Assembly (NCBI GenBank): GCA_963693365.1
Contig: CAVNZM010000003.1
Span: forward strand, 10,446,101-10,510,100
Direction of reading: 5' to 3'
Length of the DNA stretch: 64,000 nucleotides
Source: Amoebidium appalachense
Taxonomy: Eukaryota; Protista; Ichthyosporea
Shown piece after piece: positions 27,479 to 64,000 of the stretch; the stretch's first letter is position 1, and each line of letters opens with the position of its first letter. The position numbers and the translations under genes were made by a program. A model generated the notes under the pieces. The model saw only the letters and a list, made by a program, of their open reading frames with translations, did not search any database and was not told the DNA's origin.

Positions 27479-30400
27479 ATGTTCAACAAGTGGAATAAAA
27501 TGGTGTACAACGAGAAACGCATTATGGTGTGGATGGACCGCACGACCAAGAAGAAGCAGCACCTCGGGGCTATCTACGAAGTGGAGGACAGTGAACTCAC
27601 AGAGCCCTATGTTGGAAAAGACCAGTAAGTATTTTGGCGCTACTATTTTTAAACCATGCCCAATCGCCTACGAGTTGCACTGTGTTCCAACCACAAGGAC
27701 AGGTTTAGCCCTTTTGCCATGCACAAAGACATCATAATCATGAAGGGCACGGAACCCACCCCAAACAGACGCTTGCACGTAAATAGCTACCATCCGTTGT
27801 TCCAAGCTTCCGCGCATGATGCCAATGTCCGTGAGTTTAAACATATTTGTATAAAGCCCGCCCTCGTGTACTTGGAAAGAATCTTTTAAAAGCCCAAATG
27901 GGGACACTCCGATCCATTAGCTCTTGATTAACCCCCCCCCCCCCCCCCCCCTCACCCTCTCTTCTCCCTCACGGCCACTACACCATCTCTCTCTCTCTCC
28001 TTCCTCACCCCCCCCCCCCCCCCCTCCCCCCTCCCCCCCCTCCCCCCCCCCCCCCCCCCCTTCCCCTTCCTTACCGTCTTCCCCTCTCCTTTCCCGCCCA
28101 CACCCCCATTTCCCGGTACTGGCAAGAATACACAATAATGTCACCTGCAACGGTTTCAAATAATTAACGAAGGAGTATGGGTTTTAGGACAAGAAACGAG
28201 AAGAGTCCGGAAGGGAGTGAAGCCGAAGACGAAGATGGTGATGGTGAAACCCGTTCCCGCCTCGAGCTGGGAGCACAAGAGGTGCTTTTTGAGGTGCCCG
28301 AGATTACGGAGCGACCCGCCACGAAGGCAAAACGGCAGAATCCCAAGGGCCCTCAGGCTCGTTCCAGGTGTGTGTGCATACATGTGTGTGTGTGTGTGTG
28401 TGGGTGTGTGTGTGACACTGTGTGTGTGTGTGTGTGAATGGTTGCTCGAGTGTGAGTATGTATATGTGGATCAGGTGTGTTTCTTGTTTGCCAAGTTTGT
28501 TTGTGTGTGTGTGTGTGTGTGTGTGTGTGTGTGTGTGTGTGTGTGTGTGTGCGTGTGTGCATGTGTGTGTGTGTGTAGTGTGTGTGTGTGTGTGTGTGTG
28601 TGTGTGTGTGTGCATGCGTGTGTGTGTGTGTGTGTGTGTGTGTGTGTGTGTGTGTGTGTGTGTGTGTGTGTGTGTGTGTGTGTGCTCCCCATGTGTTCCC
28701 CGTGCTTGCCCCCTGCGTGCCCTGTTTGTGCCCGGTGAATTCCCCATGTGTACCGGGTGTATGCTGTGTGTGTGTGTATGTGTGAGCCTGTGTGCGTGTA
28801 TGCGTGTATGCATGTATGCGCGCGCGTGCCGGTGTGTGTGGGTGCGTGCTTTGGGTGTTTGCTTTTCCGGATCCCTGCCTTCATCTGGACTGATGTTATC
28901 ATAATATATAGCCCCCATATCTATTCTTCCCACTTACGGCTATGTATGTGGGTGCCGGTGCAATATTCCCTCTGTTGTCTCTTCCCCCCCTCCCCCCTCC
29001 CCCCCCCCTCCTGAGGCTCCCCCCCCCAGCGTACCAGCGTTTAATAACAGTACCATCATGTTGGTGACATGTGGTAAGCGGTTCCTGATAACGGGAACAC
29101 ACCAAAAATGACCAAAACAATTAATACATAAGCATGCCATTGGTATATTAGATCATAACATGTTATGATGTCCCTAAATTGTTATTCATAAGGAAAAATG
29201 TAGGTTAGCGGAGTGATTTTTTCCAAGAATTGATATAGGATATAGTGCCAGTATGGTTCTCGGTGGTATAAGAAGCCACAATGGGCTGTTTAACCGTGAC
29301 TTATATCACGTGGCACAAGAGTCATATTTACAGACTTGGGCAGGCAGCTGCAGGGGGCTCTCAAACTGGCAACGCCGGTGGGGTACTCAAGGCACCAAAA
29401 GGCAGCCAGGCAAGGGCTAAAGCCAAGACAGGAGACAGGTACTTGTAATAAGGCGTCTGAACGAGCCCGGTTGTACAATTGACATGGTTTTACAGGGATG
29501 CTTTCTTGCTAAGGGAATGTTGCGGAATCTTGCGGTTGCGGTTATGAAGATCGAGTGTGTGTAGTTGAATGTTCACCCTCCTTACAAACACATTCAACTC
29601 TAGCATTCTTATGCTGCCAGGTTCTTCATTATTCGCAGAAGCCCTCTTCTTTTTGGCATTTTTATGCTGCCAAGTTCTTCATTATTCGCAGAAGCCCTCT
29701 TTTTTTCACACCTAATGGACTGCCCTCACACAGAGCTCAAAAGCCCAGTTTGAAGGCCGCCTTATTGCTGTCGGAGGAGGAGCAATTGAGTCCCTCGGAC
29801 AACGAGGAAGAGTAATTCCCCCCCCCCCCCTCCCCCCCTCCCCCCTCAAACCCCCCCCCCCCCCCCTTTCTCTCATTTTTTTCTTCCTTATAATTTGGCA
29901 AATTGGCACGCGTTGTCATTTGGTATTGTCATATTGTGTATCCCCCCCCCTCCCCCCCCCTGCCCCCCCCCCCCCCACCTCCCCCTCCCCCCACCCCACC
30001 CCACCCCACCCCACCCCTTCCCCCCTCCCTTTGTTGGCCCTTCCTTGAAGCCTTGACGACGTGTATGATCTCATTAAGGTCTACGTATGCATTACTGGTA
30101 CATATCCGGAGTCCTTCAATATGCACATTTGAAATGTTGTTGAATATCGTTGAATATAAGTTAAAGAAGATATGTGATTTGATTGTTTATGGTTTGTAAT
30201 TGTAGGCTAGGCCGGTTTTACAGATAATGCCTCTAGAAGATGCCCCCCCCCCCCCCTCCCCCCCCCCCCCCCCTCATTCCCCTCTTCCCCCCTCCCCCTG
30301 GCCCCCCCATATCCCCCCCACCCCCTCCCCCCGGGCCCCGAGACGACTTCGTCACGTAATGTGTAATGCCCTCCCCCCCCCCCCCCCCCCCCCCCCCCCC

Positions 30401-64000: not shown

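Follow-up and report, generated by a model that had tools for sequence, protein, structure and literature searches.

The window analysed here, 64,000 nucleotides of the ichthyosporean Amoebidium appalachense (GenBank assembly GCA_963693365.1, contig CAVNZM010000003.1, positions 10,446,101 to 10,510,100), raises the question of whether an intron-rich gene that appears to join a ParB-like domain to a DNA amino-methyltransferase is a working writer of DNA modification, a gene domesticated by its host, or a copy of a family that belongs to mobile elements. An earlier note, made from the sequence alone, had described about 14 exons splicing in phase into one long frame and had quoted a series of motifs along it. 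Both descriptions were borne out. Fourteen exons on the forward strand, from position 28177 to the end of the window, gave 1,074 codons without a stop, and the motifs were all present in the order given there. All 13 introns were of the GT..AG type with consistent phases, an agreement that is partly by construction, the exon boundaries having been set by eye so that the frame stayed open. The model is open at the end of the window, so the protein has at least 1,074 aa (Table 1). The two alternative frames of the spliced exons contained 31 and 44 stops. Simple repeats made up 0.2% of exon bases as against 0–44% of each intron (at least 9% in 11 of the 13), and exons 1–13 had a coding-type GC pattern (GC3 0.65 against GC2 0.41). 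At the DNA level, the gene is a genuine spliced eukaryotic reading frame, the junction of exons 13 and 14 being the only one with outside support.

Table 1. Position of the methylase-like gene and of the retrotransposons in its last intron (window coordinates).
Feature	Position	Strand	Basis or remarks
Possible additional first exon	27479..27624	+	ATG at 27479, phase-2 donor at 27625
Exons 1–3, acidic low-complexity N-terminus, aa 1–125	28177–28367, 29334–29438, 29734–29811	+	Spliced model
Exons 4–7, putative ParB-like domain (about aa 190–350), then start of helical region	30498–30726, 31651–31836, 32172–32336, 32920–33128	+	Weak collinear blocks with L020/L005
Exons 8–10, middle region	34058–34229, 34645–34851, 35540–35569	+	Spliced model; helical in L020 model
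Exons 11–13, inferred methylase catalytic half	36111–36473, 37763–37884, 38541–38922	+	Position, motif spacing
Last intron, 24,294 bp	38923..63216	+	Gene model
Ty1/copia-type LTR element	40366..62633	-	LTRs 40366–41220 and 61776–62633; coding pieces about 41940–46332
Chromodomain-bearing Ty3/gypsy element nested in copia	51794..60034	-	LTRs 99.5% over 616 nt; GCTAG on both flanks
Exon 14, SAM-binding half (aa 814–875) and divergent tail	63217–64000, runs off window	+	PF01555, PHROG and PDB matches

The possible additional first exon is a candidate by phase, which is compatible with acceptors before 28173, 28176 and 28188 (a TAG acceptor in the last case). A long, low-complexity N-terminus was likewise seen in the metagenome relative L020. 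Exons 5–10 had no coverage in the RNA-labelled runs X12 and X13, a result that carries no weight on expression, and two length-restricted searches found no longer homologues of the gene, which is weak evidence.

Exon 14 was assigned by homology. Scanned alone, it matched PF01555 with an E-value of 6.5e-5 (23.4 bits, under the gathering cut-off of 26.7). Among the PHROG DNA methyltransferases its best match was PHROG 3008 (E 1.7e-9), and it also matched a methyltransferase of solved structure, PDB 8urk (E 8e-5). SAM-binding motif I, the QKP motif before it and an acidic residue after it were all present. These matches support a beta-class amino-methyltransferase whose SAM-binding half lies in exon 14; the earlier note had read beta-class motifs from the letters. 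In phages, 272 records were obtained at E<=1, and a search of 1.84 billion protein representatives returned 37 matches at E<=0.001 and none at 1e-10. PF01555 was recognised at E<=0.001 in 23 of 27 scanned exon 14 relatives. Eight relatives have in common a variant glycine loop, C-x-G-x-G instead of F-x-G-x-G, and the alignment of these eight led to 25 metagenome loci and to 20 proteins, among which 13 were close members not met before. A search with alignment A3 gave no viral locus, and one candidate relative, P0016, was discarded as a spurious repeat match. Three of the eukaryote-like methylase relatives (P0001, P0009 and P0012) end in cysteine-rich PHD-like fingers, recognised by eye and uncalled by Pfam.

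Three of the metagenome loci, L020, L005 and L006, contain introns (GT–AG introns were checked in L020 and L005) and share with the window protein one order of blocks: a helix and hydrophobic strand, G-G-x-H, L-x-x-E-x-x-L-x-G-x-x-H-N, a helical region, G-x-V, motif IV, N/C-P-x-Q-K-P and the glycine loop. In a tree built from 38 methylase domains (five of them partial, and the P rows labelled eukaryote-like by motif rather than from DNA), all 17 bacterial or phage rows formed one clade (99/94), apart from the window protein and 20 eukaryote-like rows. The window branch was long (2.9) and fell outside any well-supported set.

Exon 14 is separated from the rest of the gene by the 24-kb last intron, and several lines of evidence support the link. 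Homologue alignments run across the exon 13/14 junction. A 1,758-nt contig of a paralogue from run X9 reads, by hand translation, G-K-E-G-I-L-C-P-Q-Q-K-P continuously with no intron at the junction; it could derive from a spliced transcript or from a paralogue copy that lacks the intron, the DNA type of this run being only a guess. In four of four runs, contigs match the start of exon 14 and have a different stretch upstream that resembles a branch point and pyrimidine tract, suggesting that a paralogue has an intron at the first codon of exon 14.

The size of the last intron is accounted for by nested LTR retrotransposons, on which the earlier note was silent and which make up 22.3 kb of it. 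A Pfam scan of the outer, copia-type element identified RVT_2, rve, gag_pre-integrs and Pol_BBD domains. Its LTRs are identical in 845 of 859 columns, and GTGTG is found on both sides, but within a GT microsatellite. The gypsy element inside it encodes RT, RNase H, integrase, Chromo and gag domains. Because the LTR identities are high, the sequence suggests that both insertions are recent. Without the LTR element and one target copy, the intron would measure 2,021 bp. About 7 kb within the copia LTRs (46400–51790 and 60035–61775) is non-copia-coding, with intron-like simple repeats, and gave no Pfam family of note. At 39361–40371 lies an element of about 1 kb with imperfect inverted ends (81–85%), and the copia element sits at its right end.

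The same intron bears on the view that the locus is a recently dead copy or a set of accidental neighbours, in which the LTR insertion cut the transcript, or exon 14 came from another copy, and no full-length protein is made. Introns 1–12 measure only 295–1,289 bp each, as against 24 kb for the last, and the stretch just before exon 14 has an open frame that likewise reads as a QKP-like motif, both of which would fit this view. Against it, both LTR elements have matching flanks and their removal restores a 2-kb intron, paralogues have an intron at exactly the codon where exon 14 begins, with one contig reading through, and no stop or frameshift has accumulated. We regard it as very unlikely. 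On origin it is compatible with the reading we favour, descent from an accessory gene of giant DNA transposons, and differs from it just on present expression.

The catalytic half was assigned to exons 11–13 by its position, by the dipeptide GD at aa 605–606 and by one block before GD in common with L020 (blastp E 0.017), and this assignment is an inferred one. A whole-domain HMM from 33 relatives, which were themselves seeded by exon 14, aligned with aa 648–878 of the model, across the last intron. An HMM from the catalytic halves of 32 relatives gave no match to the model, and for this reason the naming of motif IV rests on position. At that position the window protein has DAPS (aa 655–658), not (D/S/N)PP(Y/F/W), and the canonical motif was found in none of the modelled exons. 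DPPF occupies the position in 14 of 14 scanned eukaryote-like relatives, and DPPY was found in P0009, L020, L005 and L006. A hidden mini-exon with a canonical motif was also sought and rejected: of the four matches on the forward strand, three were gypsy LTR/UTR DNA and one was low-complexity intron. L020 (1047–4217) and L005 (3–2233) are intron-poor eukaryotic members of the family with an intact DPPY, and would be better candidates for assays than the window gene.

With DAPS as its catalytic motif, this copy is not supported as an active writer of 4mC or 6mA, and the alternative offered in the earlier note, a catalytically altered derivative, is the better fit. According to the accessible text of the study of the bdelloid enzyme N4CMT, changing SPPY to APPA abolishes activity (PMC8885841). 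In the accessible part of a further paper, the tyrosine of motif IV is modelled as stacking on the target base, the first proline supplies a backbone carbonyl, and beta-class enzymes are described as functioning as dimers (PMC10406627). Residual activity is possible because the first proline gives just a backbone carbonyl, and the window copy is predicted, with fair confidence, to be catalytically inactive. An active amino-methyltransferase of unusual site, an enzyme that writes 6mA or 4mC with the target amine held in place by DAPS(SF), is in our view rather improbable. The protein does retain the aspartate and second proline of motif IV as well as GD and a glycine loop followed by its acidic residue, and unusual strand-4 motifs are described for some eukaryotic permuted clades in the accessible text of Iyer et al. 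(PMC4738411). Against activity, the aromatic residue of motif IV and the subsequent W-D of the relatives are lost, the catalytic half has diverged past detection by HMM and, in the same portion of the N4CMT study, mutants of its motif were dead (PMC8885841). That the gene is a new 4mC writer was rejected, no S being found at motif IV in the window protein or its relatives. For the family as a whole 4mC appears the less likely chemistry, because the relatives carry D, not S, at this position.

The ParB-like domain proposed for exons 4–7 was more difficult to place. The motifs quoted for it are present and the domain is plausible, but these exons gave no meaningful Pfam or PHROG match, nor did L020; profile scores were weak, and the protein lacks the arginines of the bacterial motif. 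A phage ParB HMM gave no match to the region. With hhalign, the comparison with phage ParB domains reached a probability of 4.6, which is weak and above 60 of 60 shuffles, and an HMM from L020, L005 and L006 scored the window protein at 1.1 bits, again weak and equalled by 4 of 500 shuffles. In pairwise comparison with L020, the ParB block gave a z of 4.7 (2 of 500 shuffles reached the score) and the whole protein a z of 2.8 (3 of 200), with the middle and catalytic parts scoring at chance; the region of exons 8–10 did not match L020 significantly in this comparison. AlphaFold gave two models of L020, both of low confidence (mean pLDDT 47.5 and 51.3), and three fold searches with them (Foldseek and VIA) found no match. 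The L020 model is helical across the part matching exons 8–10, and the predicted order of helices and strands would be compatible with the ParB topology. In the Atlas, the clusters closest to the L020 domain (0.95–0.96) were unnamed ones from cnidarians and molluscs and a fungal one of DUF3723; its value to a cluster in which 32% of members are ParB_N was 0.93, with 136 of 256 features. A search with the ParB region of L020 against phages and plasmids returned nothing useful. The nucleotide-binding motif of ParB is an arginine-bearing GxxR. The window protein has GGQHT at this position, and L020 and L005 have GGNHS, in neither case with the arginine, whereas phage relatives have AGERR-like sequences. 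Taken together, a ParB fold is predicted for the window protein with fair confidence.

Further copies of the gene were found in the same organism. Paralogous contigs occurred in runs X1, X4, X9 and X12, indicating 'several' copies, contig depth not being copy number. In run X1, such a contig over 34053–34124, at exon 8, differed at 10 of 72 positions, and contigs over exon 14 differed at 6 of 50, 8 of 50 and 6 of 66. Overall, the diverged paralogues were 80–88% identical to the window gene. In run X4, the tails of further copies had substitutions as well as indels that shift the frame. A 1,755-nt contig of run X1 is identical to 63084–63682 and then continues into other DNA that is absent from the window; it is either another copy or an allele with an insertion in exon 14.

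These copies weigh on the possibility that the gene is domesticated: having escaped its transposon in the distant past, it would by now work for the host, either as a chromatin or DNA-binding factor devoid of catalysis or paired, as an inactive member, with an active paralogue. Across 1,074 codons and 13 canonical introns the frame has stayed open, although the catalytic half is very divergent, and single low-depth contigs cover exons 5–10 in run X1, both of which would favour domestication. So would the result of the transposase scan, in which 148 of 185 candidate ORFs from the big intron and from the flank inside the window yielded no transposase family; short exons could be missed, the 37 ORFs left out were mostly repeat duplicates, overlapping frames or frames scanned earlier, and the 3' flank lies beyond the window end. 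On the other side stand the diverged paralogues together with a near-identical copy branching at 63682, the frame-shifting indels in the tails of other copies, and the setting of the gene in a repeat-filled stretch where it has tolerated a 22-kb insertion. We consider domestication unlikely, though it is the most probable of the alternatives to a transposon copy. Among the pairs of possible terminal inverted repeats upstream, the best 25 of 2,344 (the longest) were low-identity simple-repeat matches.

The closest described counterpart is in the brown alga Ectocarpus, where the giant DNA transposon Sola1-1_Ec32 encodes a 1,104-aa accessory protein with a ParB-like domain and an N4C/N6A methylase, for which binding to, and modification of, the element that carries it have been proposed (PMC12477816). 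The earlier note had suspected that eukaryotic ParB–methylase homologues might already have been noted, and for algal transposons this architecture is indeed in print (PMC12477816). Both proteins are eukaryotic and similar in length, about 1,100 aa, the window model giving at least 1,074 aa, with a ParB-like part, putative in the window protein, and a methylase in the same order, a likeness drawn from description, not sequence. They differ in that the window shows neither a transposase nor termini, has DAPS at motif IV, and comes from a probable opisthokont. In the accessible text of a preprint on the red alga Bostrychia, the Plavaka accessory genes PAG2 and PAG3, borne by giant DNA transposons, also encode a PF01555 methylase and a ParB-like domain, the latter again weak (HHpred E 0.29), but there the two lie in separate proteins (PF01555 with SET; ParB with a 2OG oxygenase) (10.1101/2025.02.11.637652), whereas in the window gene the methylase is fused to the putative ParB-like part.

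Phage fusions of ParB_N and N6_N4_Mtase (for example P0021 and L028–L045) resemble the window protein in its proposed domain order and in the C-terminal QKP, glycine-loop and acidic motifs; they differ in being intronless and of about 440 aa, in having an intact DPPY-type motif and AGERR-like ParB motif, and in forming a separate clade. Bdelloid N4CMT and Marchantia DN4MT1 are likewise eukaryotic proteins with a beta-class fold that stems from prokaryotes, permuted in them and putatively so in the window protein, but they have SPPY and proven 4mC activity, where the window protein has DAPS and its family D at motif IV. The DN4MT1 motif is given as TSPPY in the accessible part of its preprint. 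N4CMT bears a chromodomain, and the accessible text of its paper makes no mention of ParB (PMC8885841). As SPPY is absent, the window gene, judged by its motif, is outside these proven 4mC writers. In the accessible text of Iyer et al. (2016), eukaryotic N6A methylases are derived from phage ParB–terminase loci, one of them being fused to a ParB-type HTH; their clade 6 is unpermuted and FHA-fused, and the chlorophyte-type Dam family 2 belongs to group 2 (PMC4738411), whereas the window protein would have the permuted order. A 2026 preprint describes, in its accessible part, Dam-type domains in retroelements (retrotransposon Dam enzymes), and the accessible part of PMC11244446 mentions neither 4mC nor 6mA. 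Among titles and the beginnings of abstracts, a scope outside which most subscription papers lay, no functional test of the ParB-like/methylase fusion family was reported. The window gene is likely a new member of a described family, and one that is probably catalytically dead.

On balance, then, we lean towards reading the window gene as one copy, predicted to lack catalysis, of the ParB-like/beta-class methyltransferase genes that giant DNA transposons carry as accessories. Proteins of this family would be loaded onto the DNA of their own element by the N-terminal ParB-like and helical parts, and a dimeric beta-class domain would add N6-methyladenine to that DNA, DPPY or DPPF being the motif of the relatives. 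The window copy would have kept the SAM pocket, whereas in motif IV the first proline is gone, as is the aromatic residue that stacks on the base. If still expressed, it may act as a DNA-binding, non-catalytic subunit, and the recent 22-kb insertion may have silenced it. That giant DNA transposons carry proteins which bind and mark their own DNA is a proposal already in print, to which the locus would add a family member in a probable opisthokont, with a frame kept open for long and an active site that has eroded, rather than a new system. A broader scenario, to which we give little credence, would be a eukaryote-wide clade of ParB-fold/beta-class methylases with active (DPPY/DPPF) and pseudo-enzyme forms, in which the DAPS form would be a maintained SAM-binding partner or reader, writing or reading 6mA on giant transposons together with an active paralogue in a relative of animals, a pair that would have arisen independently of METTL3/METTL14 and DNMT3/DNMT3L.

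Upstream of the methylase-like gene the window contains repeats and an atypical-PKC-like gene. The latter is an intron-rich AGC kinase gene (about 2600–12650, forward strand), of which the exon at 7609–7809 had its best match in atypical PKC iota, at 109 bits where Akt reached 94.6, a result that points to an opisthokont and probably a holozoan; a perfect tandem-like duplication of 317 bp (10712–11028 and 11165–11481) lies inside it. Repeat blocks at 13785–14701 and 25532–26373, in the order A-B ... B-A and 94–97% identical, enclose about 11 kb and are possibly the ends of a split-repeat element. Between these positions there are a 1.4-kb direct duplication (15949–17348 and 22413–23809, 90% identical), a 5'-truncated fragment of a non-LTR reverse transcriptase on the forward strand (23922–25400; RVT_1, E 1e-15) and, on the reverse strand, an intronless ORF of 257 aa (20903–21673) with a faint match to AP2 (E 0.13), in which two AP2-like repeats were recognised by eye.
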